The position numbers were made by a program, and so were the translations under genes. A model generated the notes under the pieces. The model saw only the letters and a list, made by a program, of their open reading frames with translations. It ran no database searches and was not told the origin of the DNA. Source: Nitrospirota bacterium (GTDB taxonomy: Bacteria; Nitrospirota; Thermodesulfovibrionia; Thermodesulfovibrionales; JdFR-86). Taken from it: 64,000 bases of DNA. Every line of letters begins with the position of its first letter. The first letter of the stretch is position 1. The stretch covers positions 416,001-480,000 of the forward strand of contig CAVRJY010000001.1 in NCBI GenBank assembly GCA_963721805.1, given 5' to 3'. Below are positions 49 through 63,303 of this stretch, piece by piece.

Positions 49-225
49 AAAGCGCTCCGAATCGCTTGATACGTCGTTGGGCATCGAAGACTCGCCCTCT
101 ATGTACGTCACAGTACACCATCGGGCGGTCTTCTCGCCCTGCCTTGTCTGAAGACGATTTGGGCGCGCTTTCGGGGGTTGGTCGCGGCTCCGCCGCTGGA
201 CCCCCGCTTCCATAAGGTCAACGGT
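49..225 (-). repeat. Long-hairpin repeat copy R1 (subfamily A). Strand convention for all R copies: + = head GCCGTTGACC read first
   Basis: Near-identical to 821-1005, 48147-48326 and 63123-63303; AAAGCGC...GCGCTTT outer stem, GTAC-N6-GTAC apex, ends GGTCAACGG. Confidence 0.95.
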
Positions 226-235
226 TTGTGTTCTT

Positions 236-262
236 ATGTGATATAATGTACACAAGGAGGCA
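236..262 (+). promoter_or_regulatory. Extended -10 promoter (TGaTATAAT) and SD of the TA operon; TGTG...CACA may be an RHH operator
   Basis: TGTGATATAATGTACACAAGGAGG just upstream of ATG 269. Confidence 0.6.
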
Positions 263-268
263 CAAGCC

Positions 269-532
269 ATGCCACAGACCACCACGATGACCGTCAGGAT
301 TCCATCAGACGTAAAGGACAGGCTCGAGCGTCTGGCCCGATCCACGGACAGGACGAAGGCCTACATCGCGGGCCGGGCAATAGAGGATTACCTCGATGTG
401 CAGGAATGGCAGGTAAGCGCCATTAGCGACGCGGTGCGCGAGGCTGACTCTAAAAAAGCCGTCTTCCTGTCACACGCAGAAGTGGAGTCAAGGGTCAATA
501 AGAAGATCATCGCCACCGGAAAGCGTAAGTGA
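269..532 (+). CDS. CopG/ribbon-helix-helix antitoxin
   Basis: TMTVRIPSDVKDRLERLARSTDRTKAYIAGRAIEDYL RHH pattern; AGGAGG SD; overlaps the toxin gene. Confidence 0.85.
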   Translation: MPQTTTMTVRIPSDVKDRLERLARSTDRTKAYIAGRAIEDYLDVQEWQVSAISDAVREADSKKAVFLSHAEVESRVNKKIIATGKRK

Positions 533-810
533 GGGTTCAGTGGCTTACTAGCGCGGCGGATGACATGGAACAGCTCATTGACTACATTGCCGCTGATAAT
601 CCCTCAGCCGCCGCCACCGAGGCCCGGAAGGTCATGGAGGCCATAAGGCAACTTGCCGAGCATCCCGCTTCAGGCCGTACGGGCCGGGTGTTCGGCACGC
701 GTGAACTGGTCCTGCCTCCATATATTATTGCCTATAGGGTCAAGGGCGAGGCTGTCCAGATACTTCGCATACTCCACTCCGCCCGGAGATTTCCAAATAA
801 GCTGCCGTAG
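529..810 (+). CDS. RelE/ParE family toxin
   Basis: WLTSAADD...YIAADNP...GRTGRVFGTRELV..PYIIAYRV..ILRILHSAR signature. Confidence 0.9.
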   Translation: MRVQWLTSAADDMEQLIDYIAADNPSAAATEARKVMEAIRQLAEHPASGRTGRVFGTRELVLPPYIIAYRVKGEAVQILRILHSARRFPNKLP

Positions 811-820
811 CCCTCTTTTC

Positions 821-1005
821 AAAGCGCTCCAAATCGCTTGATACGTCGTTGGGCATAAAAGACTCGCCCTCTATGTACGTCTCAGTACACCATCGGGCGG
901 TCTTCTCGCCCTTCCTTGTCTGAAGACGATTTGGGCGCGCTTTCGGGGGTTGGTCGCGGCTCCGCCGCTGGACCCCCGCTCCCCTGTGGTCAACGGCATA
1001 GATTA
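821..1005 (-). repeat. Long-hairpin repeat copy R2 (subfamily A)
   Basis: Direct repeat of R1; starts about 10 nt after the toxin stop. Confidence 0.95.
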
Positions 1006-1034
1006 AAAGTTATGAGTGTGCAAGGCGGCGGGGT

Positions 1035-1085
1035 GCTTAAAATTCTCTGGCATGCGCAATGGGGTTGTGGTATCCTTGGCACATG
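1035..1085 (+). promoter_or_regulatory. Conserved motif P copy 1 (extended -10-like TGgTATCCT followed by ATG)
   Basis: 44/51 nt identical, by hand alignment, to the reverse complement of 63856-63906. Confidence 0.75.
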
Positions 1086-1105
1086 AAACTGCCAAGGTTC
1101 GGGAA

Positions 1106-1594
1106 ATGACAGGAACTACGCCTAAACGTCATGTTCTCCTCATTGTTGCCGTCTCGTTCACAATACTTCATTTCATCATAACCTCTCTTGTCGGGCATTA
1201 CATAGCAATTCAAGTTGGATCCATTGCCGGCCAGTCAGTTGCTAATATGTTGAAAGAATCCACTGGAAACACTTCGTCTTCAGATAATGAGATCAATGAT
1301 CGCCTTCAGGCAATGCGGAATAATATCGACGAACAAATATCCAGATGGAAGCTGCCAGTGATACTGATATCGTTACCGATCAGGCCGATAATCCAGCCCT
1401 TGCTTAGTGTTGCGCGTAAAGGTTGGATTTATGGGCCGGTTGTTTCTCATCAGCTTTCTAAGGAGCAGGCAGCTACGCGCCTTGTTATCATTGATACTGG
1501 CGTTAAAATCTTAAACTCACTTTCGTTTGGACTGTTGATTTATTTGGGCTGCTGGCTATTCTATAAACGTAAACGCGTAATGACAACAGAATAG
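1106..1594 (+). CDS. AT-rich hypothetical membrane protein (orphan-like)
   Basis: ORF track 1016..1594; ATG 1106 overlaps (ATGA) the stop of an 8-codon ORF starting in motif P; hydrophobic segments; lower GC than flanks. Confidence 0.7.
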   Translation: MTGTTPKRHVLLIVAVSFTILHFIITSLVGHYIAIQVGSIAGQSVANMLKESTGNTSSSDNEINDRLQAMRNNIDEQISRWKLPVILISLPIRPIIQPLLSVARKGWIYGPVVSHQLSKEQAATRLVIIDTGVKILNSLSFGLLIYLGCWLFYKRKRVMTTE

Positions 1595-1623
1595 ACGATT
1601 CAAAGTCCCCTACACAGATAACT

Positions 1624-1681
1624 CAAACAAGCCGTTGACCTTGGGGTGCGGGGTCCAGCGGCTGGGCCGCACTTAACCCCC
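1624..1681 (+). repeat. Long-hairpin repeat R3, head segment only
   Basis: GCCGTTGACCTTGGGGTGCGGGGTCCAGCGGCTGGGCCGC..TTAACCCC nearly duplicates the head of R4 (2111-2170). Confidence 0.9.
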
Positions 1682-1861
1682 TCAGCAGGCCCCGAGTTGC
1701 CTCCTGATAAGGTCGCAAAGCGTGTTTTTGATTTCCGCATGTCTTGGGATAGGGGCCTTGCGGCCATTGGTGGGGTTCAGATAAATGTCATGGTTCGCGC
1801 CATGCCTCTTAAGCACGCAGCCTTTATCCAGCAACTCCCGGATCAGTTCTCCGCGCTTCAA
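1682..1861 (-). CDS. hicA: HicA family toxin (59 aa, absent from the ORF track)
   Basis: Hand translation from TTG: MKRGELIRELLDKGCVLKRHGANHDIYLNPTNGRKAPIPRHAEIKNTLCDLIRRQLGAC; start overlaps the hicB stop. Confidence 0.9.
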   Translation of the reverse strand: MKRGELIRELLDKGCVLKRHGANHDIYLNPTNGRKAPIPRHAEIKNTLCDLIRRQLGAC

Positions 1862-2064
1862 ACCTCTACGCCTATCTCCTTGCGCTCGACGGCCCCTACC
1901 GGCGGGGCTTCTTCGTCATCCATCAGGAGCTGGTAGACCTCCCTGATGTTGTTTTCGAGTTCGTCGAGGCTCTCGCCCTGCGTGAATACGCCGGGGACCT
2001 CTTTGAGCCTGCCCACGTACCATGTGTCGTCCATCCAGTATTCAAGGGTAAAGTGCCTGAGCAT
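1858..2064 (-). CDS. hicB: HicB family antitoxin (short form)
   Basis: WYVGRLKEVPGVFTQGESLDELENNIREVYQL motif; AAGGAGG SD; TGtTATAAT upstream. Confidence 0.9.
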   Translation of the reverse strand: MLRHFTLEYWMDDTWYVGRLKEVPGVFTQGESLDELENNIREVYQLLMDDEEAPPVGAVERKEIGVEV

Positions 2065-2110
2065 CGCGCACCTCCTTAGTTGAATTATAACAGATGGCCG
2101 TCAGGCGCTT

Positions 2111-2293
2111 CTAATCAAGCCTTTGACCTCGGGGTGCGGGGTCCAGCGGCTGGGCCGCTATTAACCCCGCAAAGCGCGATAAATCGTGTCAGACTAGGAG
2201 CCTGCGAGGAAAACGTCCGACGGTGTACTGAGACGTACATCGAGGACGGATTTCCGAGCGGTGACAACGTATCACGCGACTTTAGCGCGCTTT
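2111..2293 (+). repeat. Long-hairpin repeat copy R4 (subfamily B)
   Basis: Same fold with covarying arms GGAAAACGTCC/GGACGGATTTCC; close to R6. Confidence 0.9.
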
Positions 2294-2306
2294 CAGAGAG
2301 CGTTCC

Positions 2307-2897
2307 CTATGGACATTTGGTTTCCGCGATCTCTCTGGCATACCACGCTATCGACTTGATACAGTCCAGCATCTCAATGAACAACCCCGACGCGACCGGC
2401 AGGCACAGCCCCTCGATCAGCCGGTCCTCGTGCGCCGTGGCCGCGTCGTCGGCCGCCTTCTCGACGACCGTCTCGGTCCTGATGACGTGCAGCGCCCCCA
2501 GGGCCGAGCCGGTCAGCACGTAGTCCTTCGTATGCACGATTATGTCCCTGAGGCGCTCCATGAGGTAGCCGAGTTCCTTATATGCCTTGTCGCTGAACAG
2601 TATCTGGCCCGAATGCTTGGCCGCGATGGCCGCCTCGATGCGCACCATATATCTGAGCATCTGCTCTAGCCGCGTGACGGTCGGGATCAGGCAGGCCACG
2701 TTGGGGTCCTTCCTGACGTCCTTGACCAGGGCCTCGACGAGCATGTGAAGCCCGCCCTGCATCTCGTCGAGCCTGGCCCTCGCCCCGGCGATCAGGGGGG
2801 CGTCGAACCTCTGCAGCGACTTGTGCGATGCGTCGAGCCCCTCGGTCAGGGCCGGGAAGAAATCCTCCATTATGGCGGCGAATGCGGTCTTGGCCAT
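2307..2897 (-). CDS. PhoU-like helical domain protein
   Basis: AGGAGG before MAKTAF; HEDRLIEGLC...SGLFIEMLDCIKSIAW resembles the PhoU-type tail of Na/Pi cotransporters. Confidence 0.6.
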   Translation of the reverse strand: MAKTAFAAIMEDFFPALTEGLDASHKSLQRFDAPLIAGARARLDEMQGGLHMLVEALVKDVRKDPNVACLIPTVTRLEQMLRYMVRIEAAIAAKHSGQILFSDKAYKELGYLMERLRDIIVHTKDYVLTGSALGALHVIRTETVVEKAADDAATAHEDRLIEGLCLPVASGLFIEMLDCIKSIAWYAREIAETKCP

Positions 2898-3131
2898 GGC
2901 TGCCTCCTGTACGCGGTTCGGTTCAAGTCCGGGCGTTTCTGCCCTCAGCCCGATCATATCAGATAACCCGCCGGGACGCAAAAACCCCCGCAAACGCCGG
3001 GGGCTGGCTGTCTATTAGGATCAATCATCTATCCATTAATATAATTTATTTGACCGCCGCGCGCTAGGTATATTAGGCTTAAACGCATTTTCCCCGCACA
3101 GATAATGCAAACAACTCATAAGGAGGATCGA

Positions 3132-11735: not shown

Positions 11736-11817
11736 GTCCTCCCGATAAGAAACCGTAGTTTAACCGTTCAGCCCCAACAGTTGTCAAGGCGCCACGGGGG
11801 GCCGACTGGCCCATCTT

Positions 11818-11994
11818 CTAAAAGCCGTTGACCGCGAGGCGCGGAGGCAGCGGTTGGGCCGCGCACTTCGCAAAGCGCGATAAATCGCGTCAGACTAGGA
11901 ACGGCGAGGAAAACGTCCGACGACGTACTGAGACGTACTTCGAGGACGGATTTCCGAAGCCGTGACAACGTATCACGCGACTTTGGCGCGCTTT
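11818..11994 (+). repeat. Long-hairpin repeat copy R6 (subfamily B)
   Basis: Similar to R4; tail overlaps the TGA of the nitroreductase gene. Confidence 0.92.
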
Positions 11995-12644
11995 CATTCC
12001 ATCCACTTCATAATTTCGCCAAGCGGTGCCCGTTCGGTGCGGAACTGGTTCATGGGGTGCCCCATGTCCGCGTACCCGACCGAGAGCCCGAGGCAGAGCC
12101 GCTTTGAGGCGTCGATGCCGAGGACCTCTTTCACGATGGCCGAGTAGTCGGTCAGGAATGCCTGCGGGACCGAGCCCACGCCGTGGGCGAATGCGGCGAG
12201 CATCAGGGTTTGGGCGAACAGGCCCATGTCGAAGAGAGACCACGCGCCGAGGGCCGAGTCCTGAAAAAGGTATATCCCGTGCGGGGCGCCGTAGAACCTG
12301 AAGTTGGCCTCCTTCGACTTGCGCGCGAGATCGGGGTCCGAGGCGTTTATGCCGCGCCTGCTAAACAGGGCGTCGATGCGGGTCTGGTTGACCGCGGGCC
12401 ACGAAGTGGCGGCCGGGATGTCGGGGGTGGGCGGAAACCCGGCGGCAAGGGCCTCGACGAGCCGCGCGCTTAACGCCTCCTTGGCCGCGCCGCTTAGTAT
12501 GATGGCCTCCCAGGGCTGGGTGTTTTTGTATGACGGGCTTCTGAGCGCGGCCTCTACAATGGCCTCGAGGGTCGCGCGAGGTACTGGGTCGGGCCTGAAC
12601 TTCCGTACGCTCCACCTGCCTTTGATGCACTCGATAGCGTCCAT
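11994..12644 (-). CDS. Nitroreductase family protein
   Basis: RWSVRKF, SPSYKNTQPW, FYGAPH, DMGLFAQTLMLAA. Confidence 0.93.
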   Translation of the reverse strand: MDAIECIKGRWSVRKFRPDPVPRATLEAIVEAALRSPSYKNTQPWEAIILSGAAKEALSARLVEALAAGFPPTPDIPAATSWPAVNQTRIDALFSRRGINASDPDLARKSKEANFRFYGAPHGIYLFQDSALGAWSLFDMGLFAQTLMLAAFAHGVGSVPQAFLTDYSAIVKEVLGIDASKRLCLGLSVGYADMGHPMNQFRTERAPLGEIMKWME

Positions 12645-13103: not shown

Positions 13104-14644
13104 GATGATGCCTCCCGGGTGTCGGCCTCCACCCTGTTTCTGCCGTTGGTCTTGGCCCTGTACAGGGTCTCGTCGGCCCGATTTGTGAAGCTTTCGAGCG
13201 AGTCGCCGGGCCCGAACTCCGCGACCCCGAAGCTGCATGTCACGCGCCCGGCGCCCTCGAATTCGCTCTCGCCGATCAGGGCGCAGAGCTTCCCTGCCAT
13301 GACGAGCGCGCCCTGGCGCGGGGTGTCCGGCGCAAGCAGCATAAATTCCTCCCCTCCCCAGCGCGCGAAGGTATCCGGCAGCCTCTTGTTTGCGCTCACG
13401 AGCCGCGCCAGCTCCCTCAGCACGCTGTCACCGATCTGGTGGCCGTAGGTATCGTTGACCGCCTTGAAGCGGTCGATGTCCAGCATGATCAGCGACAGCG
13501 GCGTGCCGTAGCGCCGCGCGCGGCTTATCTCGCTCAGGAGGACCTCGGAGAACTTCAGCCTGTTGCAGACGCCGGTGAGGACGTCCGTCGTGGCCTGGCG
13601 TTCGAGTATCCTGTTTACGTACTGCAGCGAGTCCTGCGCCCGCTTGCGCTCGGTGATGTCCATGAAGGTGCCGATTATGCCCCCAACACGCCCGTTTTCG
13701 TCCATGAAGACGTTCTTATTATAGACCACGTCGAGGGTCTCGCCCGAATGTGAGTTCACCTTGAAGTCATAGACCTGATGGGCCGGATTTTTCAGGAGCT
13801 CCATGTCGTGCTGGTGGTAGGTGCGCGAGAGCTCGCCCGGCCACAGGTCAAAGACGGTCTTGCCCGCGACCTCGGCGGACGTGACTCCCATGACCCTCGA
13901 GAACTCCTCGTTGCACCCCAGGTACCGGCCCTCCGAGTCCTTGTAGAAAACCGCCACCGGGATCGTGCTTAAGAGAGTTTCAAGAAACCGCAGCTGGCGC
14001 TTCAGGGCGTCCTTGGTTCTCTTGCTTTCGGAGATGTCCGAAAACGCGGCTACGGACGCCACCACGGCCCCGCCTTGTATTATGGGGGTCGCGACTATCG
14101 AGACAGGCACCATTACGCCATCTTTGCGCGTGAAGGTCTCCTCATCGATGCGGCACGGTCTGGCGGCCTGCACCAGCTTGTGTATCGGGCACTCGGATTG
14201 GAACACCTTCCAGCCGTCAGCGCATTGAAAGTGTACGGTGTCATGGAAGTTCCTGCCGAGCAGTTCCGAGGCCTGCCATCCGAGGATGCGTTCGGCCTCG
14301 GGGTTCATAAACGTAAGGAGGCCCTCAGCGCTAACGACGTAGACCCCCTCGCCGAGCACCGAGGTGATCGAGCTCAGATGCCCCTCGCTGTCGGCGAGCG
14401 CGCGGCCGGACTCGCGCAGCCGTTCAAGGAGCATTATAAAGAGGGAAAACACAAGCGTCCCAACCAGCGCGGCCGTGACGAAGCCGGTTATCATAAAGTC
14501 AGGGGTGACCCTGCCGTGGAAGAATACGCACAGCGGGGCTACGACTATCTCGACGAGGAATATGGTCAGGCCTAAGGAAATCAGCAGGAGGTATGAGGAC
14601 CTGATCTTCAGCAGATAAGAAAACGCTCTGTCTTTGAAGTCCAT
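13100..14644 (-). CDS. Membrane-anchored PAS-PAS diguanylate cyclase
   Basis: Two N-terminal TM segments, two PAS domains, DIDRFKAVND and RWGGEEF. Confidence 0.93.
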   Translation of the reverse strand: MDFKDRAFSYLLKIRSSYLLLISLGLTIFLVEIVVAPLCVFFHGRVTPDFMITGFVTAALVGTLVFSLFIMLLERLRESGRALADSEGHLSSITSVLGEGVYVVSAEGLLTFMNPEAERILGWQASELLGRNFHDTVHFQCADGWKVFQSECPIHKLVQAARPCRIDEETFTRKDGVMVPVSIVATPIIQGGAVVASVAAFSDISESKRTKDALKRQLRFLETLLSTIPVAVFYKDSEGRYLGCNEEFSRVMGVTSAEVAGKTVFDLWPGELSRTYHQHDMELLKNPAHQVYDFKVNSHSGETLDVVYNKNVFMDENGRVGGIIGTFMDITERKRAQDSLQYVNRILERQATTDVLTGVCNRLKFSEVLLSEISRARRYGTPLSLIMLDIDRFKAVNDTYGHQIGDSVLRELARLVSANKRLPDTFARWGGEEFMLLAPDTPRQGALVMAGKLCALIGESEFEGAGRVTCSFGVAEFGPGDSLESFTNRADETLYRAKTNGRNRVEADTREASS

Positions 14645-14665: not shown

Positions 14666-15568
14666 CTAACTCACAACCCCGGACTCGGCCTCCACCCTGT
14701 TCCTGCCGCCGGACTTGGCCTTGTAGAGGGCCTCGTCGGCCCGTCCGGTAAAGCTCTCAAGCGTATCGCCCGCTCTGTAGGCGGCGACCCCGAAGCTGCA
14801 GGTCACGCGGCCCGCCCCCTCAAACGCGCTTTCCTGGACGATCGCGCGGAGTTTTCCGGCCAGTGCGGCGGCGTTTTCCAGCGAGTCGTTCGGCGCAAGC
14901 AGCATGAACTCCTCGCCGCCCCAGCGCGCGAAGGAATCGTAGTTTCTTATGTTCGCGCTGATGAGCCGCGCCAGCTCCCTCAGCACGCTGTCGCCCGCCT
15001 GGTGGCCATAGGCGTCGTTGACCTCCTTGAAGTGGTCGATGTCCAGCATGACCAGAGAGAGCGGCGCGCCGTAGCGCTCGGCCCTGCCGATCTCGGCCGA
15101 GAGGACCTCGGAGAACTTGAGTCTGTTATATATTCCCGTGAGCGTGTCCGTCGTGGCCTGGCGTTCGAGTTCCTCCTCGACCAGCCGCTTTTCGCGCAGC
15201 GACTCTATCATCGCGTTAAAGGCGGCCGAGAACTCCCCGAGGAACGTGACCCTCTGGCTCAGGTCCCCCTTGGCTATCTGCTGCGTCTGCCAGGTGAGGT
15301 GCCTGAGGTTGGCGTGAAGCTGCTTGAACCGCGAGACAAGGAAGTTGCGGGCCGGAGGGTCCGCGTCGAGGTTGCCCTTCGAGAGCGAGGCGATGAACTC
15401 GTTGGACTCGTTAAACGCGCGCAGGAGCCTGTCTATCGAGGCATGAAGGCGCGAGAGTCCCTCGTCGTCGCATCTGGCTGCATCGAGGCGCGGCGGCGGC
15501 TGGCCCGCAAGGAGCATCTCGACCGCCTCGTTCAGCCCCGCGACGGCCGATACGTCGGCCTGCGTCAT
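14666..15568 (-). CDS. HAMP-containing diguanylate cyclase
   Basis: QQIAKGDLSQRV..GEFSAAFNAM HAMP; RWGGEEF; ATGA overlap with the V4R gene. Confidence 0.92.
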   Translation of the reverse strand: MTQADVSAVAGLNEAVEMLLAGQPPPRLDAARCDDEGLSRLHASIDRLLRAFNESNEFIASLSKGNLDADPPARNFLVSRFKQLHANLRHLTWQTQQIAKGDLSQRVTFLGEFSAAFNAMIESLREKRLVEEELERQATTDTLTGIYNRLKFSEVLSAEIGRAERYGAPLSLVMLDIDHFKEVNDAYGHQAGDSVLRELARLISANIRNYDSFARWGGEEFMLLAPNDSLENAAALAGKLRAIVQESAFEGAGRVTCSFGVAAYRAGDTLESFTGRADEALYKAKSGGRNRVEAESGVVS

Positions 15569-28977: not shown

Positions 28978-31726
28978 ATGATACGCAAGAACGCTTCATT
29001 CATAGGCATACTGATGCTCCTGCTAATGCCCTCGCTGATGGCGGCTGTTTTCACGGGCTGCGGCGGCTCGGGCAACAGCGCCTCGTCGGGCGGCTCCTCG
29101 GCTGCGGTCAGCTCCGCGTCGCTGGGCAAGATCGGTATCCAGGGCCTCGTCAACTCAGCGTCCGACCTCCTCATCACGAACGCTGCGGGCGACCAGTCCG
29201 AGCCGGACGTCGCCTATGACACGAAACACCCGCAGTATTTCATCGTATGGACCGACAACAGATTAGGTGCATCTCGAACAGCGACATATACGGCGCTCTG
29301 GTTAACGGCCTCGACAATTCCGTATCGATGGACCCTTTCATTATCTCGGACGACGCTTCAACGGCCGACCAGGTCCACCCCGCAGTTGCTATAACAGCGG
29401 ATACGCACAAGTTCCTCGTCGTATGGGAGACAGCAGAAACGGCTATTCCCAGATATAGCGGCCAGTTCGTCGACGGCCTGACCGGGACAAGCGGCGAGGG
29501 CGCCAACTTCCCGGTAACCTCGGCTTATACTGCTGACCAGGACGAAACATATCTAGAACCGATTGACGGCAGCGGTATCACAAACGCTTTGACCGGCACC
29601 GTCACAAACACCACGACCTACCAGGCCCAGCATACGCCGTCGGTTACTTACAACACTGTAAAGTCCAAGTTCATGGTGGCATGGCAGGAGAGCACGGACG
29701 CCGACTATCAGTATTTGTATGTAACAGATGTGTGCACCGAATTCGCATTGTTCCCTGAGAAGTATCTCAGGGCTGCCACGGCAGACAATATCATGGTGCG
29801 CTACGCGGTGCTCAATCGTCCTCAGACATAGAGCTGCCAGACGGCAATGGTGACCTTCCAAGGGCCAATTTCAGCTCGCTTGTCATTACTGACGGCCCAC
29901 ATATACAGACAGCTGCTCCGCGACATCAAAAGCAGGCAGACCGTTATAAAATTACGACGCTCATGGGCAGCGAGTCCTCTCCGAGGATAGGTTTCCACCC
30001 CACAGACGGCGTCCCTATCATTATGTGGTCGGGCAAGAAGAAAGCAGTTACATACACAGTCAAGTTCGCTGGCACTTATGACAGCTGGGACCGACAGTTG
30101 GAAATGGACGGAAACCGGCCCTACGTTCACAACGAGCGACGCGGATACCTACAGGAATATCTATCTCAGGAAGGACACTCTTGGGCTCGTTACTGATCTG
30201 GCCCTTACGCCGGATTCTACTAATTTCTATAATCCGTCCTTCGCGCCAGCGGTCGACAGGCTGCTCGTTGTTTGGGAAGCTGCTTCAACTAACAGAGATA
30301 TCTATGGCGAGTTTGTAGACTATGACCATTAGTCCGCTGAGCTTCACGCCTCTCGATCTCTACCGCGCAGGGCAACCAGACCAACCCGAAGGTTGCTTAC
30401 GAATCCAGCAATGACAGGTTCTTCGTGATCTGGGAGGACGGCCGCAATCTCTCGGTCAACCCCTCGAACATGGACGTATACGGCCAATTCATAGACTCGA
30501 GCGATACGCTCTCGGGTGCGAACTTCATTCTTGACCACGAATACGAGCAACCAGTCCCAACCGGCCCTCTCGTTCGCGACGACACGGAGTCACAGAAGTT
30601 CCTGGTAGGCTGGAAGGACGGCCGCAACGCCTCGCTTCCGGGCTCACCGACCGGGCAGTCGGACTTGTACGCCAACCTTTGGAGTGGCTCAACCGCACCG
30701 AACCTCGTTGTGGCGGACAACGCCACCCCTGCGTGCCGCTTTATACGCAGTCACACGACTTCGGCGGGCTCGTAAACGGGGCCGCCCGTTACGTTTCGTC
30801 ATCAGGATATACAATAACGGCAACGCCCCCTTAACATACGGAACCTTTACGGGCGAGCGCAATCGTAAATGTCGGAGTGGCCAACAGCGCCAGTGCCGTT
30901 TAATATCGACGAGCACGATCCCGACAATGATCCTCGCCGGTGAGCTACACCACCATAGGCGTGCAGTTTCAGCCCGGCCGGTCGGCCCCAATCTACAGCG
31001 GCATCGCTCACGATCAACAGCGACGGCGGCACAACAGTGCTCCAGTTCACCGGCTCGCTGATCTCGGGCACCGCAAGTCCGATCTCATCAACGTAGCCTC
31101 ATCATCCGTCCCAACCGGTACGTAGAACACGACCTATACTGGCACTGTTGTGGCTAGCGGTGGGGTTATCCCCTATACTTTCAGCATAAGCTCGGGCACG
31201 CTACCTAACGGTCTTTCAATCGAAGGCTCAAGCGGCGTGATCAGCGGCACACCTACAGCGAATGGCACGAACAATTTCACAGTAATGGTGACTGACGCAA
31301 TAGCTGCCCATGCCAGCCAGTCAATTCAGCGTCACGATCACCGGTGCACCTTCTGGCGGCGGTGGTGGCGGCGGCGGCGGTGGCGGTGGCGGCGGAGGCA
31401 GCAGTAGCGGCGGGAAAGAGGCGTGCTTCATAGCCACGGCTGCGTACGGGAGCTACCTTGACCCGCACGTCATGGCGCTGCGCGTGTTCCGCGACAGGTA
31501 TCTGCTAACGAACCCGGCAGGCCGCGAGTTCGTAGCGTTCTACTACCGCAACTCGCCGCCCATAGCGGACTTCATATCACAGCACGAGGCGCTCAGGACG
31601 GCCACGCGCATGGCCCTGACGCCCATCGTATACGGCGTCCAGTACCCGCTGTTCGGCTTCGGCATGATCGCCGCCGCCGGAGCGGCCCCGCTGATAAGGC
31701 GGCGTCTCAGGAAGCGCCAGAAGTAA
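28978..31726 (+). pseudogene. Fragmented large surface lipoprotein with repeated W(E/K)DGRN-type units, a He_PIG/Ig-like domain, a Gly linker and a CFI-box-CTERM domain
   Basis: Coherent protein text spread across frames: FTGC lipobox, [61 protein letters not shown]. Confidence 0.75.
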
Positions 31727-31744: not shown

Positions 31745-31780
31745 GCGGGCCGGGTCGCGCGTAAGCGCCCCGGCCCGCTT
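31745..31780 (+). terminator. Hairpin after the CFI-box gene
   Basis: GCGGGCCGGG...CCCGGCCCGC followed by TT. Confidence 0.5.
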
Positions 31781-32024
31781 GCACGTTCAGCCCCCCGCTT
31801 ATCACGCTTGCAGCAAGAGAAGGGCCTGTGGCCCCCCGGCCCGCTTGCACGTTATTTATCACGCTTGCGGTAGGGGAAGGGGGCAGTCGCCCCCCGGCCC
31901 GCTTGCACGTTCAGCCCCCCGCTTATCACGCTTGCAGCAAGGGAAGGGGCCTGTGGCCCCCCGCCCGCTTGCACGTTAGTTATTTATCACGCTTGCGGTA
32001 GGGGAAGGGTGCAACTGCCCCTTC
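31772..32024. repeat. A-B-A-B tandem repeat (AB period 124 bp)
   Basis: GCCCGCTTGCACGTT units starting near 31772, 31838, 31896 and 31963, each followed by TTATCACGCTTGC and a G/C hairpin. Confidence 0.9.
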
Positions 32025-32056: not shown

Positions 32057-32848
32057 ATGAAATTCCTGAGCATTGTGGTTGCATGTCTGCTCGCAATTTC
32101 CTGCGGCGGCGGGGGTGCGGGCTCCGGCGGCGGTGGCGGCAACGGCGGCTCGAGCGACACCGGCACGGTCGTGACCGCGAGCGTGGTGCCCGGCTCCGTC
32201 AACGTGGACTACTGCTCTGACGAGGGTGAGACCGCCTCGGCCACGCTTACGGCCGACCTCATCAACTCCTCCCTGCCCTCAAACACGCTCACGACCGAGA
32301 GCTACCGCGTCACGTTCACGCCTCTGACGCACGGCGCGCCGGTCATAAACGGCGGCGTATTTTCGGACAGCCGCACGCTGCCCGCAAGCGAATTCCCAGT
32401 CTCATTCATCGGTTCGTCCGATAAGCTTGCGCTAAGGGCGGCCCTGGCGAACTCCGGGGCGGCGTATTCGTACACCGCGAGGTACAGGTTTTCGGGCGAG
32501 GACCTTTACGGCACCTCATGGAGCGCGGTCGGGAGCTTCGCGTTCAACCTTGGCAAGTTCTCGGCCTGCCCGCTTTCGATATATCCGCCCGCGGCTACGG
32601 TCACAGGCATCAACAACCCGGACTCCGACCTGGGTGACGACGTCCTCTTTAGGGTCAGCGGCGGCACGCCGCCCTTTACGGTATTTTCCGACAGCGTGCT
32701 TCTAAACTCCCCCGGGACGCTCCCGGACGGGATAACGAGCTTCATCGCGGACCCCAATCAGGCTACCGAGCCCACCATGGTTACGCTCACCGTATCGGAC
32801 TCCCTCGGCGCCCTGAGCACGGCAACCCTCACGGTCACATCGCCCTGA
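32057..32848 (+). CDS. Hypothetical lipoprotein, beta-rich/Ig-like
   Basis: MKFLSIVVACLLAISC lipobox, Gly linker, VSGGTPPFTV...LTVSDS. Confidence 0.75.
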   Translation: MKFLSIVVACLLAISCGGGGAGSGGGGGNGGSSDTGTVVTASVVPGSVNVDYCSDEGETASATLTADLINSSLPSNTLTTESYRVTFTPLTHGAPVINGGVFSDSRTLPASEFPVSFIGSSDKLALRAALANSGAAYSYTARYRFSGEDLYGTSWSAVGSFAFNLGKFSACPLSIYPPAATVTGINNPDSDLGDDVLFRVSGGTPPFTVFSDSVLLNSPGTLPDGITSFIADPNQATEPTMVTLTVSDSLGALSTATLTVTSP

Positions 32849-32921: not shown

Positions 32922-32925
32922 CTTT

Positions 32926-33116
32926 TAATCAATGCCGTTGACCGCTCGCACGGTTACGCAGATGAAACTTAAAGCGCGAGAAATCGTCTTCAGACAAGGG
33001 GTGCCACGGGCACCTTTTACTTTAAAGGAGGGGCCCGTGACCCCCGCAGGTGTACTGAGACGTACTCCGAGGGAGATTTTCGGATGACGCAGTATGAAGC
33101 GATTTGGTGCGACTTT
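32926..33116 (+). repeat. Long-hairpin repeat copy R7, interrupted by REP-like hairpins
   Basis: TAATCAATGCCGTTGACC head, AAAGCGCG, CAGACAAGG, inserted GGGGTGCCACGGGCACC, GTACTGAGACGTAC apex. Confidence 0.85.
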
Positions 33117-33136
33117 CCAATGAGCAGCGAATGAGT

Positions 33137-40385: not shown

Positions 40386-40397
40386 GAGCATTTTTTC

Positions 40398-40668
40398 AAA
40401 GCGCTCCAAATCGTTTGATACGTTGTTGGGCATCGAAGACTCGCCCTCGGAGTACGCCCAGATAAGAAGTGACCTTCTTCAAAGCGCGCCAAATCGCTTG
40501 ATACGTCGTTGGGCATCAAAGACTCGCCCTCGGAGTACGCCCAGATAAGAAGTGACCTTCTTCAAAGCGCTCCAAATCGCTTGATACTGCGTTGGGCATC
40601 GAAGACTCGCCCTCTATGTACGTCACAAGACGCCCCCCGCGCCCCACGAGGTCAAAGGCATTGATTAG
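40398..40668 (-). repeat. R8: three tandem half-copies (83-bp period) of the long repeat plus its head
   Basis: AAAGCGC at 40398, 40481 and 40564; ends GGTCAAAGGCATTGATTAG. Confidence 0.92.
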
Positions 40669-40685
40669 AGCTATATAAAAAGGAA

Positions 40686-48061: not shown

Positions 48062-48146
48062 GGTGAATAACCCTCCATCTTTTGGTTTAAATTGAACTCC
48101 AATTATCGCTTACAACCCCTTGGCATTTCAAGGTCGCGCACAGATG

Positions 48147-48326
48147 AAAGCGCGCCAAATCGCTTGATACTGCGTTGGGCTTCAAAGACTCGCCCTCTAT
48201 GTACGTCACAGTACACCATCGGGCGGTCTTCTCGCCCTGCCTTGTCTGAAGACGATTTGGGCGCGCTTTCGGGGGGCACGGAAGAAGTTCGCCCCCCGCG
48301 CCCCACGAGGTCAACGGCTTTGATTT
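48147..48326 (-). repeat. Long-hairpin repeat copy R9 (subfamily A)
   Basis: Core near-identical to R1. Confidence 0.95.
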
Positions 48327-48700
48327 GAGGCACGTTCGGATGCGCGGCTTAGGTATAGTTATGCATTCCGCGCGCGTGCGCGCGCATTTTTTTTAGAGCG
48401 TTCAAATGAACAAACAAAACAAGCTTTAACCCTGCGGAATTTCATTGCTTTTTGGCGACCTCCGTGTTCATGCGTTCAGAAACAGTTTTCACTCTGTCCA
48501 TCGGTCACTGTCGTTACTTTCAGCGCCATCAAAATGAGCATATCAGCCTCATCCCGTATTGAAGCACATCGAAATGAAAAATGCGATAACCTATGGTTTA
48601 TATATAAACCGAAGTTCATAGGAAAAATTGTCCCCCGTGCGTTTTCTATTAACTTTCGATTAACTGTGGTTAATGAGGGCGGAAACCACTGTGATAAATA

Positions 48701-48740
48701 TCTGGAATACTCTAGGCGGTTGTGGTATCTTTGAAGCATG
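48701..48740 (+). promoter_or_regulatory. Conserved motif P copy 2
   Basis: TCTGGAATACTCTAGGCGGTTGTGGTATCTTTGAAGCATG; 36/40 identical to copy 3. Confidence 0.75.
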
Positions 48741-49114: not shown

Positions 49115-49174
49115 TTTATCACGTGTAACATTGCCATCAAGTATCAAAAATTAGAAAAAGCGACTGAAGATTAT

Positions 49175-49343
49175 CTAATCATGCCGTTGACCGTTCGCAC
49201 GATTAGACAGAAGTTAAACTAAAGCGCGATAAAGCGCGTCAGACAAGGAAGGGCGAGAAAACCGCCCGACGGTGTACTTGGGCGTACTCCGAGGGCGCGT
49301 CTTTGAAGCCATGACGCAGTATCACGCGACTTTAGCGCGCTTT
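49175..49343 (+). repeat. Long-hairpin repeat copy R10 (A/B mosaic)
   Basis: CTAATCATGCCGTTGACC head; B-type outer arms with A-type inner arms. Confidence 0.9.
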
Positions 49344-49351
49344 AAAAAAGC

Positions 49352-49927
49352 CTACGAATTCAGCTTCTTCAAGACCCACGCGAAATTGTCGCCCAGATTG
49401 CGCATCGTTTCGATGCCTTCCGTGTCATTGGAGACCTCGCCGGGATTCCTGCCCACGCCGATGTTCCAGTACGACGAGCCCGGCATCACCATCTGAGCCT
49501 GCAGGAAGAAGAAGTTCATCGAACTAAGCACGGTCGTGGCACCGGCCCTGCGCTCCGCGCATATCGACGCGCCGACCTTGCCCTTGAACATCCAGTCGTT
49601 GGCGCGCGAGACCATCCCGGCCCGTTCGATTAACGCCTTCATACCGGCCGACATGTCCGCGAAGTAAGAGGGCGACCCTAGTATTATGCCGTCCGCGGAG
49701 AGCATCGCCTCTATGCACTCGTTTACGATGTCGCCCTTTACGGCGCAGCGTTTGTCCTTGTGCTCGAAGCACTTAAAACATCCTATGCAGCCGCCCGGAG
49801 CCCGGCCCGCGAGTTCCAGCAGTTCTGTCTCTATGCCATTGACGCTTAACCGCTCGAATACCGTGTTTATCATCGTCGCGGTGTTGCCGCCCTTGCGCGA
49901 GCTTCCGTTGATAGCTATAACCTTCAT
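49352..49927 (-). CDS. Iron-sulfur flavoprotein (flavodoxin-like)
   Basis: INGSSRKGGNT, CIGCFKC-X7-C, LGSPSYF; AAGGAGG SD. Confidence 0.92.
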   Translation of the reverse strand: MKVIAINGSSRKGGNTATMINTVFERLSVNGIETELLELAGRAPGGCIGCFKCFEHKDKRCAVKGDIVNECIEAMLSADGIILGSPSYFADMSAGMKALIERAGMVSRANDWMFKGKVGASICAERRAGATTVLSSMNFFFLQAQMVMPGSSYWNIGVGRNPGEVSNDTEGIETMRNLGDNFAWVLKKLNS

Positions 49928-49992
49928 GTATAGTCCTCCTTGGTAGGATTATTCTCGCACATTTTAAGGGATGATGCTACGGGGGCTTCAAA

Positions 49993-50169
49993 CTAATGCC
50001 GTTGACCTTGTGGGGCGCGGGGGGCGTCCTTCGGCCGTGCCCCCCGAAAGCGCGCCCAAATCGGCTTCAGACAAGGCAGGGCGAGAAGACCGCCCGATGG
50101 TGTACTGTGACGTACATGGAGGGCGAGTCTTTGAAGCCCAACGCAGTATCAAGCGATTTGGAGCGCTTT
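49993..50169 (+). repeat. Long-hairpin repeat copy R11 (subfamily A)
   Basis: Reverse complement of an R9-like sequence. Confidence 0.95.
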
Positions 50170-50220
50170 CAGAGAAGCCAACAAGCAGGTTTAAGTGAAA
50201 CTCGTGGTATACTAGTTGTT

Positions 50221-59556: not shown

Positions 59557-59568
59557 ACCGAGCCCCCC

Positions 59569-60672
59569 TTATGTCAGGTAAAACATCTTGCCCGGCATCT
59601 GCCGAACCGCGCCCTTAAGCTCCAGAGACAGAAGCAGCCCAAGCGCCCTTGCCGGCTCAAGCCCCGCACCCCGCGATATATCGTCTATGTGCTTGGGCTC
59701 GCGGGACATCGCTTTACAGAGGCCGTCCTCGTCTTCGGAGAGTGATATATTACACGTTCTGTCGGATTTTATAAAACCCCGGAGCACTGGGGCCAGCTCG
59801 AATAGTATGTCCTCGGCCTTCCCGGCCGGGTGCGCCCCGTCCTTTATAAGCAGGTTCGTACCCCCGGATGTGGGTGAAATCACGCTTCCGGGCACCGCGA
59901 ATACCTCCTTGCCCTGCTCTAGCGCGAACCGCGCGGTGATCAGCGCCCCGCTGCGCTCGGCTGCCTCGACAACCAGCACCCCAAGCGAGAGCGCGCTGAT
60001 GATCCGGTTGCGCCGGGGGAAGTTCTCCTTTAAAGGGGGCATCCCCGGCGGGAACTCGCTTACGACCGCGCCGTCGGCCTTGGCCATGCGCTCGATCAGC
60101 CCCCGGTTCTCGGCAGGGTACGCGACGTCTATGCCGCATCCGAGCACGCCGACCGTGCGGCCCCCGACCACTATAGCGGCCTTGTGGGAGACGGTGTCGA
60201 TCCCGCGCGCCAGGCCGCTTATCACGGTTATCCCGGCGCGGCCGAGGTCGCGAGCTATCGAGTCCGCGACCTGCAGCCCGTAATTGGAACAATTGCGCGA
60301 GCCGACGACCGCGATTGAGTACTTGTCTTCGGGGATCAGCGAGCCCTTGATATAGAGCACGAGCGGGGCGTCAGGCCCGAGGGCCAGCCTGAGCGCCTCG
60401 GGGTAGCCCTCATCTTCGTGGCTGATCAGCGCGACGCCGCTTTTAAGCAGCGCGTCTATCTTTCTCTTGAGCTCGTCCGCGCCGTTGAAGGCCGCGATGA
60501 ACTCGGCGCGGCGCTCAGATACGCCTTCGATGCCCGCAAGCTGCCGCGCATCGGCCCGAAGCACGGCCTTTGGATCGCCGCCGAACGCGCTAAGCAGCCT
60601 CCGGATCGTCACCGGCCCCACGGAGGCCACCGCCCCCAGCGCCGCAAGCTCAAACGTGCGCTCGGCGAGCAT
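59569..60672 (-). CDS. dprA: DNA-processing protein DprA
   Basis: AVVGSR, ISGLARGID, FPRRNRIISALS, SGALITA. Confidence 0.96.
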   Translation of the reverse strand: MLAERTFELAALGAVASVGPVTIRRLLSAFGGDPKAVLRADARQLAGIEGVSERRAEFIAAFNGADELKRKIDALLKSGVALISHEDEGYPEALRLALGPDAPLVLYIKGSLIPEDKYSIAVVGSRNCSNYGLQVADSIARDLGRAGITVISGLARGIDTVSHKAAIVVGGRTVGVLGCGIDVAYPAENRGLIERMAKADGAVVSEFPPGMPPLKENFPRRNRIISALSLGVLVVEAAERSGALITARFALEQGKEVFAVPGSVISPTSGGTNLLIKDGAHPAGKAEDILFELAPVLRGFIKSDRTCNISLSEDEDGLCKAMSREPKHIDDISRGAGLEPARALGLLLSLELKGAVRQMPGKMFYLT

Positions 60673-60680
60673 AACCGGGG

Positions 60681-61886
60681 CTACTTCGCCCCTTTTCCCT
60701 TACCCTTGCTCAGGCTGCGTATGCGAAGCCTGAGCGAGTTTAGGCGTATAAAGCCCTCGGCATCGGCCTGCTTATAGACCGAATCCTTCTCGAAGGTCGC
60801 GAAACCGCTGTGATAGAGCGTGACCGGAGACTTCCTCCCGACCACGCTCAGGCCGCCCTTATATAGCTTGAGCCTGGCGGTTCCGGTGACGCCTTCCTGT
60901 ATCTTGTCCATCATCGTCTGAAGCGCCTCGCGCTCGGGCGCGAACCAGTAGCCGTAGTAGACCATCTCGGCGTAGCGGGGGATCAGGGAGTCGCGCAGGT
61001 GCAGCGTCTCACGGTCCAGCGTGATCGACTCCACCGCGCGGTGCGCCGCGTGCAGCACCGTCCCTCCGGGCGTCTCGTATACCCCGCGCGACTTCATCCC
61101 GACATACCGGTTTTCGACCATGTCGAGCCGCCCGACGCCGTTTCTGCCCGCGATGCCGTTGAGCGCGGCCAATAATTTAGCTGGTGATAGCTTCTTGCCG
61201 TTTACGCTAACGGGATTTCCCTTCTCGTAGCCGATCTCGAGGTACTCGGGCTTGTTGGGGGCCTTCTCGGGCGCGACCATCAGGGTGTACATATCCGCCG
61301 GGGGCTCGGCCCACGGGTCTTCGAGTATGCCGCCCTCGTAGCTTAGGTGAAACAGGTTCATGTCCGTGGAATAAGGCTTTTTCTTCGTGACCGGCACCGC
61401 GATGCCGTGCTTCTTGGCGTAATCTATAAGCGACTCGCGGGAGTTCAGGTCCCATTCGCGCCACGGCGCGATCACCTTAATGCCCGGCTCTAGCGCGTAA
61501 TATGTGAGCTCAAACCGCACCTGATCGTTGCCCTTGCCGGTCGCGCCGTGCGAGACAGCGTCCGCGCCGACGGCGCGCGCGATCTCGATCTGGCGCTTCG
61601 CGATCAGGGGGCGGGCTATAGAGGTGCCCATCAGGTATCCGCCCTCGTATACCGCGTTGGCGCGGAGCATCGGGAATACGTACTCCGAGACGAACTCCTC
61701 TGTTATGTCCTCGACGACCGCCTTTGTGCAGCCCATCCTGAGGGCCTTGGCCTTGATCGCGGCGAGGTTTTCCTTCTGGCCCAGGTCGGCGCAGAACGCG
61801 ACGATCTCGGCGTTGTAGACTTCCTGGAGCCACCTTAATATCACGGACGTATCCAAGCCACCTGAATAGGCAAGCACTACCTTCAT
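60681..61886 (-). CDS. argG: Argininosuccinate synthase
   Basis: [34 protein letters not shown]. Confidence 0.98.
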
Positions 61887-61975
61887 ATGAATATTCTCCT
61901 TACAGTTTAGGCTGTGCGCATAAACTGAAACATATCACGCGCACCGCCCAACAATCAAGGGGTGGCCGCTTTTTC

Positions 61976-62050
61976 AAAGCGAGCCAAATCGCTTGATACG
62001 TCGTTGGGCTTCAATTTTACCAAGCGGGACTCGCCCTCTAATCACGTCTC
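61976..62050 (-). repeat. Degenerate partial long-hairpin repeat R12
   Basis: AAAGCGAGCCAAATCGCTTGATACGTCGTTGGGCTTCAA..GACTCGCCCTCTA. Confidence 0.8.
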
Positions 62051-62081
62051 GTTTGCGTGAGGGTTTGCCCCTTCATTGGCC

Positions 62082-62115
62082 ATAGTTAATCCAAAGTTAG
62101 TAGAAAACGCACGCC
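62082..62115. repeat. 34-bp direct repeat, copy 1
   Basis: 32/34 identical to 63928-63961. Confidence 0.85.
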
Positions 62116-62222
62116 CCTTAACTTGCAATAGCGGTCAGCATATTACTATGATGGTAAATTAAAACGCTCTGTGCTTCAATGCAAAAGATTATCAGGTCTC
62201 GGAAGGCGCGGTGAAGTTAATC

Positions 62223-63083
62223 ATGAAAAAAATCTTCATACTCGGAGTCGGCTGCCAAAAAGGCGGCACAACATGGTTGCATAATTATCTTTCAAAGCAC
62301 CCGAGCTCCAATATGGGGTTCACAAAAGAGTACCATATATTCGACGCCCTCTACCTGCCTGAGTATGAGCGTTACCGTCACAGGACAACCGAGTATGCCA
62401 GCGCACTCATAAGAAAGTCAGAAAAATCCCTGCGCAGGCGCTTGCTGGAAATCAGGCTCCGTAAATTATTCCAGAGCGATATCAACAGATATTTCGACTA
62501 TTTCGCTAAAAAAGTCAACTCGTCGGATGAATTTACTTTTACAGGGGATATCACGCCGGAATATGCCGGTCTGTCGTCGGAAGTTTATGGGATCATTAAA
62601 AACGGGGCCGAATCAAGAGGGTTTGACGTGAAGGCCGTATTTATAATGAGGGACCCGGTCGAGCGCTGCATATCAGCCATGAAAATGCGGAGAAAACAGA
62701 TGAGATTGGACCTGACGGATGATGAAAACGCCTCGCTTATCAAGGTGTATTCCACGAGAGATTTTCAGTATCTTACGCGGTACGAAAGGACAATGAATAA
62801 CTTGGAGAGCGTATTTCCCGCCAAAGACATTTACTATAATTTTTATGAGAATCTTTTTAACCCGTCAACCATGGAAGAGATTACGGATTTATTGTCAGTG
62901 CCTTTCGTGCAACCGAATTTCAATAAGCGCAAAAATGCGTCGAAAACCAGCTTTCAGATCGATGAAAGCATTCGAAAAAGAGTTTTTGACTTTTACGGCG
63001 ATACGTATGATTTCATGGCCGGCCGCTACGGGAAAGATTACATTTCAAGCATATGGCCAAACTACCGGAACCTCTCAACCTGA
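62223..63083 (+). CDS. Sulfotransferase family protein (AT-rich)
   Basis: GCQKGGTTWL PAPS loop, KEYHIFD, GDITPEY, MRDPVERCIS. Confidence 0.88.
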   Translation: MKKIFILGVGCQKGGTTWLHNYLSKHPSSNMGFTKEYHIFDALYLPEYERYRHRTTEYASALIRKSEKSLRRRLLEIRLRKLFQSDINRYFDYFAKKVNSSDEFTFTGDITPEYAGLSSEVYGIIKNGAESRGFDVKAVFIMRDPVERCISAMKMRRKQMRLDLTDDENASLIKVYSTRDFQYLTRYERTMNNLESVFPAKDIYYNFYENLFNPSTMEEITDLLSVPFVQPNFNKRKNASKTSFQIDESIRKRVFDFYGDTYDFMAGRYGKDYISSIWPNYRNLST

Positions 63084-63122
63084 TTCTCATTCCCCGTCTG
63101 CTGCGCCGCGCCTAACCCCCGC

Positions 63123-63303
63123 AAAGCGTGCGAAATCGCTTGATGCTGCGTTTGGGCTTCAAAGACTCGCCCTCGAAGTACGTATCAGTACGTCGTCGGG
63201 CGTTCTTCTCGCCCTGCCTTGTCTGAAGACGATTTGGGCGCGCTTTCGGGGGGAGAGGATAACGGAAGCCCCCCGCGCCCCACAAGGTCAACGGCTTGAT
63301 TAG
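63123..63303 (-). repeat. Long-hairpin repeat copy R13 (subfamily A)
   Basis: Same core; ends GGTCAACGGCTTGATTAG. Confidence 0.93.

Follow-up and report, generated by a model that had tools for sequence, protein, structure and literature searches.

Our analysis shows that a repeat of about 175-190 nt (roughly 185), here called R, is scattered between the genes of a 64-kb stretch of Nitrospirota DNA (hereafter the window, G000:C1:416001-480000) and that it is a real, strongly non-random and structurally constrained feature. R folds into a long hairpin whose stems change in sequence while their pairing is kept, and its central rod recurs in other genomes as the body of MITEs (miniature inverted-repeat transposable elements). 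We consider R to be probably a mobile DNA repeat that is non-autonomous and centred on its hairpin, and that depends on this hairpin for spreading. The source assembly, G000, comprises 2.78 Mb in 9 contigs at ~60% G+C and is 94% complete; the genes of the window are core chromosomal ones and include a dissimilatory sulfite reductase-like pair, pilMNOPQ, topA, dprA and argG.

Copies in the window and their conserved fold

Motifs of the repeat are found in the window far more often than expected by chance: AAAGCGCG is seen 23 times against 5.06 expected, GTAC-N6-GTAC 9 times against 0.23, and GCCGTTGACC, with one mismatch at most, 21 times against 5.72. Repeat finding and a nine-copy alignment resolve R into a head (loosely CTAATCAA, then GCCGTTGACC), a variable GC hairpin and a ~120-nt rod. 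The profile built from 9 window copies gives 14 matches at 12 loci, 9 of them full and 3 partial. An earlier note on this DNA had counted 13 loci; the family that it described is real, while the profile search brings the number down to 12. The loci are as follows.

48143..48329, minus strand: full R copy of subfamily A, used as reference (motif and profile matches, fold)
Parts of 48143..48329, minus strand: head GCCGTTGACC at 48309-48318; GC hairpin at ~48270-48305; rod at 48147-48269; apex GTAC-N6-GTAC at 48201-48214
45..232, minus strand: full R copy of subfamily A (profile)
817..1009, minus strand: full R copy of subfamily A, tail 7-10 nt past the stop of a ParE-like open reading frame (ORF), 529..810
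1623..1682, plus strand: head and GC hairpin remnant, rod lost or degenerate (repeat finding, profile)
2109..2297, plus strand: full R copy of subfamily B, tail ~10 nt away from the stop codon of the minus-strand ORF 2307..2993
11813..11998, plus strand: full R copy of subfamily B, tail running into the stop codon of a minus-strand nitroreductase ORF, 11994..12644
32922..33119, plus strand: full R copy with an extra small hairpin within the 5' arm of the rod (alignment, profile)
40394..40670, minus strand: three tandem 83-nt units at 40394-40634, each a rod tail half with 3' flank, then a head remnant at 40631-40670
49172..49347, plus strand: full R copy whose GC hairpin is replaced by a short AT-richer one and whose tail is 5 nt away from the stop codon of the minus-strand ORF 49352..49927
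49986..50173, plus strand: full R copy of subfamily A (profile)
61972..62050, minus strand: isolated rod tail half (repeat finding, profile)
63122..63307, minus strand: full R copy of subfamily A, tail 39 nt past the stop of the sulfotransferase-like ORF 62211..63083

None of the Pfam-supported ORFs of the window has a repeat copy inside it, and the single tail that reaches a gene overlaps the stop codon of ORF 11994..12644 (minus strand) by a few bases. At 7 of the 10 tail-bearing window loci that could be judged, a convergent gene has its stop codon within 0-39 nt of the tail. This agrees with the earlier description of the copies as intergenic, about seven of them with the tail beside a gene 3' end.

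The fold of single copies is stable, with a minimum free energy of -90.7 kcal/mol (z = -6.3) for one copy and -85.2 (z = -5.9) for a second, and the single-copy and consensus folds reproduce the anatomy first proposed for the repeat: head, variable GC hairpin, ~120-nt rod, internal loops and apex. With a covariance model made from the window copies we aligned 84 copies, taken from the window and from twenty 20-kb stretches of the genome, at E <= 1e-20. Standard pairs occupy 95.9% of the pair cells in these copies as compared with 89.1% after shuffling, and 28 of the 41 pairs show changes on both sides, with 186 such cells against 34.2 in shuffled alignments; none of 500 shuffles reaches any of the observed measures. 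When the partner column is slid by 1-3 positions, pairing falls to 29-43%. The compensatory changes reported from the window copies are thus upheld in the larger set, and the two subfamilies likewise hold genome-wide: among 173 full copies the inner stem has both arms of type A in 81, both arms of type B in 26 and a mixed combination in 1, the remaining 65 fitting neither motif set fully.

Comparison of nearest-neighbour copies (68 pairs) shows that paired columns differ less than unpaired ones (0.046 versus 0.093 per column). Changes in pairs between such neighbours leave both copies paired in 83 cases, among which 41 are double changes, and break pairing in one copy in 86; broken pairs in single copies fit what is expected of a selfish element decaying after insertion. 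Among paired cells G-T is found 91 times and A-C 42 times, 33 of the G-T cells coming from one column. RNA folding reveals a difference between the strands as well: in 129 of 153 R rods the strand carrying CAGACAAGG comes out as the more stable (means -56.6 versus -52.6 kcal/mol), and the same is true of 14 of 17 rods of the related MITE (means -53.8 versus -46.1). This modelled asymmetry points to one strand as the probable folded and selected form, which would apply to RNA and single-stranded DNA alike. Covariation and strand asymmetry in folding energy support the view that selection acts on folded single-stranded DNA or RNA. Finally, two asymmetric internal-loop motifs, CAGACAAGG opposite ACGnnGTAT, are constant across genera, and the stems around them covary.

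Relatives of the rod and copies across the genome

On the whole assembly the profile gives 238 matches on 6 of the 9 contigs, which amount to 38.5 kb or 1.39% of bases, and the copies are dispersed. They comprise 173 full copies, 51 that keep the tail and have lost the head side, 10 of the reverse kind and 4 internal pieces. The 51 include 5 halves split by an IS30-family insertion sequence (IS) and 6 MITE-type rods, and 4 of the 10 reverse cases are split halves too; with these set aside, about 40 truncations keep the tail and 6 keep the head. Their breakpoints fall into two clusters, 18 at the rod base and 22 at the apex. Every rod differs from all the others, the median identity being 96% between nearest neighbours and 77% over all pairs, so the R family is old and diverse in its lineage and not the product of a single recent burst. 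R copies are also nested in, or adjoin, other repeats. A search for solo heads with a 10-mer was dominated by chance matches.

Outside G000 only the rod was met. BLAST with a 198-nt copy against 41 related genomes matched G000 alone, and a pattern specific for R found 0 matches in a genome-contig collection and 0 in a metagenome-contig collection. The covariance model, in turn, has matches in 3 of 10 other genomes of the family (4 of 11 if G000 is counted), where the alignments show the ~120-nt rod as the only part in common. In these relatives the loop motifs CAGACAAGG and ACGnnGTAT are constant, and the stems differ from those of R yet pair (outer stem AAAGAGAG...CCTCTTT, apex GCGCAGC...GCTGCG). 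Their rods form the body of ~177-bp elements that have terminal inverted repeats (TIRs) of 17-27 nt (GAACCTRTCTCAAAAT...) and TA flanks. A pattern for this MITE form found 33 loci, all in records titled as Nitrospirae or Nitrospirota metagenome-assembled genomes (MAGs); both inverted repeats are present in 30 of the 33, with the TIR pairs 150-220 nt apart, and for these 30 a TA just outside the TIR is present on the left side in 17 and on the right side in 21, 14 of the 30 having it on both. A plasmid collection contained neither R nor the related MITE. TIR matches number 136 in one MITE-bearing genome and 42 in G002. The apparent TIR singletons of G002, considered as a possible partner IS, proved to be short elements with a more diverged second TIR.

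G000 itself holds 5-6 MITE-type copies. A MITE rod from G000 aligns to the R rod over its full length and in the same strand sense in a pairwise comparison, with which an alignment of 24 sequences agrees. A second covariance model from 24 rods of all forms (E <= 1e-5) found the rod in 13 of 151 genomes of the order: 3 of 10 in family f1 besides G000, 7 of 12 in f4, and 1 of 15 in each of f2 and f6. At the level of sequence comparison, the rod is thereby shown to be the conserved core of what is probably a small mobile-element family of this Nitrospirota order. R, by the same comparison, would be a lineage-specific offshoot in which the rod has acquired a new 5' module (head CTAATCAA-GCCGTTGACC plus variable GC hairpin) and has lost the classical ends. 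In G000 it outnumbers the classical form about thirtyfold.

Two further small repeats were noticed next to these elements. In MITE-type copies of other Nitrospirota MAGs the palindrome GTCCCGCC-nn(n)-GGCGGGAC takes the place of either the apex or a portion of the outer stem, and it resembles a second, very small hairpin repeat lodged inside the rod element; such copies are at loci L073, L075, L076, L079, L081, L083, L085, L087, L090, L093, L096 and L101. Just 5' of R heads in G000 there recurs a short unit of CTCACTATTCGCG, a small GC hairpin and TCATCT, sometimes in tandem (e.g. G000:C1:495046-495180), which is possibly a further REP-like module of the mosaic.

Longer than these is module U, a piece of ~370 nt that stands upstream of the R head in 44-54 copies of G000. 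Three places in or at the edge of the window belong to it.

48326..48705, minus strand: module U joined to the head of 48143..48329; on its reverse strand a GC hairpin is followed by T8 at 48369-48395
62072..62115, plus strand: left end of U (CATTGGCCATAGTTAATCC...AAAACGCACG) without the remaining U (repeat finding)
63918..64000, plus strand: left end of U running past the window end into a U+R unit whose R copy is at G000:C1:480263-480442

Module U holds a perfect palindrome GGTTTATATATAAACC, repeats of ATCCGAAC or its TGAAC variant, and an alternating GC hairpin beside an A/T run. At length it occurs only in G000 among the 151 genomes, one other genome having a 37-nt match. As a rule R comes next after it, and then a co-directional housekeeping gene. 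Its left end (CAYTAACYATAGTTAATCG) resembles the R head in the same orientation, and the U-R junctions vary by a 12-nt piece that is present or absent exactly at ...ATGCC|GTTGACC. No convincing sigma-70-type promoter site was found in the head or in U. The module could be a portable promoter or leader, or else a transposon end.

Three kinds of coding element are repeated in G000, an IS200-type (6 identical copies), an IS30-family (7) and an IS481-family element (10), and the ends of all of them are unlike those of R. The IS30-family element has a 326-aa transposase (NF033563, 279 bits); 4 of its 7 copies occupy one identical point within the rod and leave both rod halves in place, and a fifth copy lies beside one half. 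It appears that this element uses the rod as a preferred target; other repeat families receive foreign elements in a similar way. An autonomous parent of R is not hidden in the split copies, the ~1.1-kb inserts being this IS30-family element with its own ends. The five copies are the following.

L001:340-1460, corresponding to G000:C1:387169-388444: IS30-family element
G000:C1:649218-650494: IS30-family element
G000:C1:759536-760797: IS30-family element
G000:C2:397025-398251: IS30-family element
G000:C2:367077-368295: IS30-family element

The six identical IS200-type units are ~610-620 nt long, encode a 144-aa Y1 transposase, carry the hairpin CCCCGTGGCAAGCCACGGGG at both ends and have GTTAA or GTTAG abutting one side. 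Two of them lie as insertions within the left end of module U. As a parent of R this type was rejected: it is a compact 610-620-nt unit with boundaries of its own, and the GC hairpin of R is variable, unlike CCCCGTGGCAAGCCACGGGG.

G000:C1:42194-42868: IS200-type unit
G000:C1:366464-367070: IS200-type unit
G000:C1:1251868-1252487: IS200-type unit
G000:C1:1452017-1452630: IS200-type unit
G000:C4:138451-139057: IS200-type unit
G000:C4:146403-147075: IS200-type unit

The IS481-family element (344-aa transposase, NF033577 270 bits, ends TGTAAAAGT...ACTTTACA-like) is found at G000:C1:669389-670939 and nine other places. Most of its copies are flanked by arrays of the palindrome GGAACYRGTTCC, which is part of a variant of module U. 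It was likewise discarded as a parent, its location being in the GGAACYRGTTCC arrays and not at R ends.

Several observations stand apart from the repeat. Between the R copies at 45-232 and 817-1009, which have the same orientation, the window holds an antitoxin-like small ORF and a ParE-family toxin ORF (PF05016) at 269-810. Other repeats of the window (31331-31418, 31765-32021, 32093-32156) are GGC-rich runs and 62- to 124-nt near-tandem units with CCCGCTTGCACGTT...ATCACGCTTGC. The neighbouring GGDEF-domain genes at 13114-13607 and 14677-15170 share stretches that are 74-83% identical, which implies a local gene duplication. In the assembly, whole small contigs match C1 at no less than 90% identity (C3 against C1:1327954-1347918; C7 and C8 against C1:798234-807494), as does the start of C6 (C6:1-3447 against C1:1541799-1545246); these matches are either assembly redundancy or strain variants in the bin.

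Mobile DNA, transcript module or recombination substrate

The explanation that we favour, a mobile repeat dependent on its hairpin, would work as follows. The folded CAGACAAGG strand with its constant loops would be recognised by a protein during copying, and only copies that keep the fold would leave descendants, because the folded strand would be what this protein recognises. A folded strand as the copying substrate fits the data because pairing is maintained, the asymmetric loops are constant and one strand is favoured in folding. Copying may proceed from the constant 3' (tail) end to a variable 5' extent, so that copies may stop at the apex, at the rod base or at the head, or may continue into module U with its head-like left end. 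Such a copying process, anchored at the 3' end and varying in its 5' stop, is suggested by the constant tail, by truncations that fall at structural boundaries, by U+R units bounded by a head-like site and by the lack of target duplications. After insertion, most copies lie right behind stop codons or just before start codons, where they are tolerated and may affect transcripts, and once inserted they would decay.

A number of results weigh against this explanation. Target-site duplications, a hallmark proposed for checking, did not appear: across 144 R copies, direct repeats of 3-8 nt do not rise above shuffled controls whichever two offsets are taken, and neither do inverted repeats in the flanks of the same copies; the flank logos hold little information. 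An inverted head within 200 nt of the tail is found in 3 of 223 copies, which is the chance level, and R therefore has no TIR. A pair of filled and empty sites was not found in contigs from two DNA runs, which are short pieces, nor was any joint that skips the repeat. No IS630-type transposase over the cut-off is present in G000 or in the rod-bearing relatives G002, G003, G041 and G096, all of them incomplete assemblies; a truncated IS630-like fragment in G041 was rejected as partner, having no matching ends. G000, at its stated completeness, has no match to reverse transcriptase (PF00078) and no IS110 transposase. The IS91-type Y2 HUH transposase (PF04986) gives no match either, in a search that is silent in all 14 control genomes as well. 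The pair counts come from an alignment that was fitted to the model, and the copies are paralogues whose cells are not independent events. The bias in truncation could partly reflect selection against deletions that reach the gene beside the tail. Lastly, the constant loops, the strand asymmetry and the placement at gene ends fit an RNA function at the level of the host equally well. The description of R as a non-autonomous mobile element thus stands in part: dispersal, homology of the rod to a MITE with TIRs and TA flanks, and nesting speak for it, and R itself has no TIR and no target-site duplication, and no partner transposase was found for it in the incomplete assemblies searched.

It is this last point that brings in a cis-acting role at gene ends, a live rival that is also compatible with a mobile repeat. 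R would then be mainly an RNA module, spread by mobile DNA and kept for its role in transcripts, for example as a hairpin in untranslated regions (UTRs) that sets mRNA stability, processing or termination, the U+R unit being a portable upstream cassette (promoter or leader). We see this as possible, though rather unlikely. The folding advantage of one strand in both R and MITE rods is what such a role would predict, as are loops that stay constant across genera between covarying stems. Gene context, which rests here on a crude ORF-based gene call, agrees with it in part. Of 98 solo R copies, 67 have the tail towards the 3' end of a gene (median distance 13 nt), and ~170-200 nt separate the head side from the next gene. 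Of 44 U+R units, 33 have the tail directed at the start of a co-directional gene, with a median distance of 57 nt. Among these 33 genes the 20 closest are housekeeping genes of unrelated kinds, and 15 of the 20 have Pfam matches, BipA, MscL, YchF and aconitase-family proteins among them. The hairpin followed by T8 on the reverse strand of U is of the same tendency, and for ERIC and Correia repeats orientation-dependent effects on mRNA are reported in PMC2229807. On the other hand, where a tail abuts a convergent gene, the mRNA of that gene would carry the worse-folding strand. R copies occupy all four gene-end contexts (51, 46, 44 and 32 of the 173 full copies), many single copies have broken pairs, as the 86 events above illustrate, and neither head nor U offers a promoter consensus. 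A known RNA family is ruled out by Rfam: the whole window at gathering thresholds yields one tRNA only, and the U+R unit has no match even at E <= 5.

A bolder form of the mobile-repeat explanation, which we hold to be distinctly unlikely, joins the two. The rod would be a protein-recognised fold that has outlived its transposon and is copied from one end, independently of TIRs and target-site duplications, from the fixed 3' end to a head-like stop, with the ability to take upstream DNA such as U along; in addition the host would use it in UTRs at the stop and start codons of core genes. If true, one-ended copying combined with host UTR use would be a mode of spread undescribed for bacterial repeats.

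A further explanation is more difficult to maintain: R would serve single-strand DNA recombination or HUH-type transposition as a substrate, with a recombinase or the resident IS200-type TnpA cutting at or next to the head (GCC|GTTGACC), in the manner of IS200/IS605-derived elements, REPINs or attC sites. We regard this as very unlikely. What suggested it was a structure without TIR or target duplication and with a hairpin near each end, together with the junction variants at ...ATGCC|GTTGACC, which lend some weak support to the recombination substrate proposed in the earlier note. The resident IS200-type element with its Y1 transposase likewise has ...CCATGCC a few bases before the GC hairpin at its left end, a resemblance seen by eye, and the R head and the left end of U are each a small inverted repeat. 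IS200/IS605-type elements are expected to follow the direction of replication. R copies on contig C1, however, are 56 in plus and 55 in minus orientation, with near-equal numbers in almost all 50-kb bins, while the GC skew has a single sign over most bins and its cumulative curve rises throughout. The GC hairpin of R varies between copies, unlike the CCCCGTGGCAAGCCACGGGG of the IS200 ends, the head lacks an inverse partner at the other end, and the copies are dispersed and form no array. The best score for an integron integrase in G000 (TIGR02249) is 68.8 bits against a cut-off of 265, and an enzyme of the IS91 type was not found by the search described above. With no orientation bias and no suitable enzyme found, a role in single-strand recombination has the weaker case. 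An integron, a bridge-RNA element of the IS110 type and a retroelement can be dismissed together, there being no integrase, IS110 transposase or reverse transcriptase in G000.

Place among known repeats and significance

R is best filed in the known class of hairpin-forming non-autonomous bacterial repeats, and the variant itself is new. With a classical MITE it shares small size, a non-coding nature, many copies (238 matches of a 175-190-nt form) and intergenic position, whereas a TIR and target duplication are absent from R; the TIR is found on the ~177-bp form, with TA on both sides in 14 of 30. From IS200/IS605-derived elements (PATE) and REPINs it differs in having no end hairpins like those of the resident Y1 element and in an orientation that is not tied to replication.

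Several close parallels are among repeats described in PMC2229807. ERIC or IRU, of about 127 bp in enterobacteria, is intergenic, non-coding and multi-copy as is R, and forms a long imperfect hairpin of similar length. It has short TIRs, TA termini and a target duplication and is reported to influence neighbouring mRNA according to orientation (PMC2229807); R, in contrast, lacks the TIR and the duplication, has an extra 5' head and GC hairpin, and shows no match in sequence or in Rfam. Elements of the Correia/ERIC/RUP type have a TIR, TA termini, a size of 100-200 bp and a long stem-loop transcript (PMC2229807), and the ancestral ~177-bp form matches this type as it is described there. Correia/NEMIS of Neisseria resembles that ancestral rod MITE in its TIRs, TA flanks, length of 100-200 bp and a hairpin over the whole length; for the rod MITE, too, no partner transposase was found in the incomplete assemblies that carry it. 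The sequences are nevertheless unrelated, R has neither TIR nor TA, and the rod has constant asymmetric loops and stems that covary across genera. RUP of Streptococcus pneumoniae is a TA-flanked element with TIRs that is thought to be moved in trans and that interacts with insertion sequences (PMC2229807). The rod element is likened to it in these respects, and the form in the relatives has its TA signature; RUP, however, has a known matching IS630 element, IS630-Spn1, and none was found here, where an IS30-family element inserts into the repeat and not the reverse. CIR, known from Caulobacter and Brucella, has no TIR and consists of two stem-loops with a linker in a phylogenetically conserved structure, with a conserved GANTC methylation motif in the loop and TA termini (PMC2229807). 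R likewise has no TIR and consists of a GC hairpin plus a rod, but it is without the GANTC motif and the TA termini and its copy number is higher, 173 full copies in 2.78 Mb.

REP units, in the accounts drawn on here, are 20-40 bp long and accompanied by a single-copy RAYT gene. R is like REPINs in forming hairpins, in having neither TIR nor target-site duplication and in its vertical persistence in a lineage, whereas the only Y1-family matches in G000 are the six identical IS200-type copies. The attC sites of integrons also resemble R: they form an imperfect hairpin, are selected for structure and not for sequence, work through a specific strand and often lie behind gene 3' ends. The GTTGACC within the R head is, moreover, one base off the attC core, GTTRRRY. 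The attC sites are, however, shorter than R, and G000 has no integron integrase, no cassette array and no inverse core pairing, the head being unpaired in the folds. In the publications covered on MITEs or repeats of Nitrospirota and Thermodesulfovibrionia and on repeats or hairpins of sulfate reducers the family is not described; ISfinder and the supplements of PMC11602168, a MITE census that may list it, lie outside this scope.

Bacterial repeats that form hairpins, ERIC, Correia, CIR and REP among them, are common, and the ways in which they spread and persist are mostly unsettled. Here one hairpin core exists in two states within one genome, as a classical element with TIRs and TA flanks and as a far more successful derivative without both hallmarks. 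Such a two-state family makes it testable whether it is the ends or the fold that is selected and whether a repeat can switch its way of spreading. Because it makes up 1.4% of the genome of an uncultured sulfite reducer, lies at the ends of core genes and serves as a landing site for an IS30-family element, the family likely shapes expression and genome rearrangement in its lineage.

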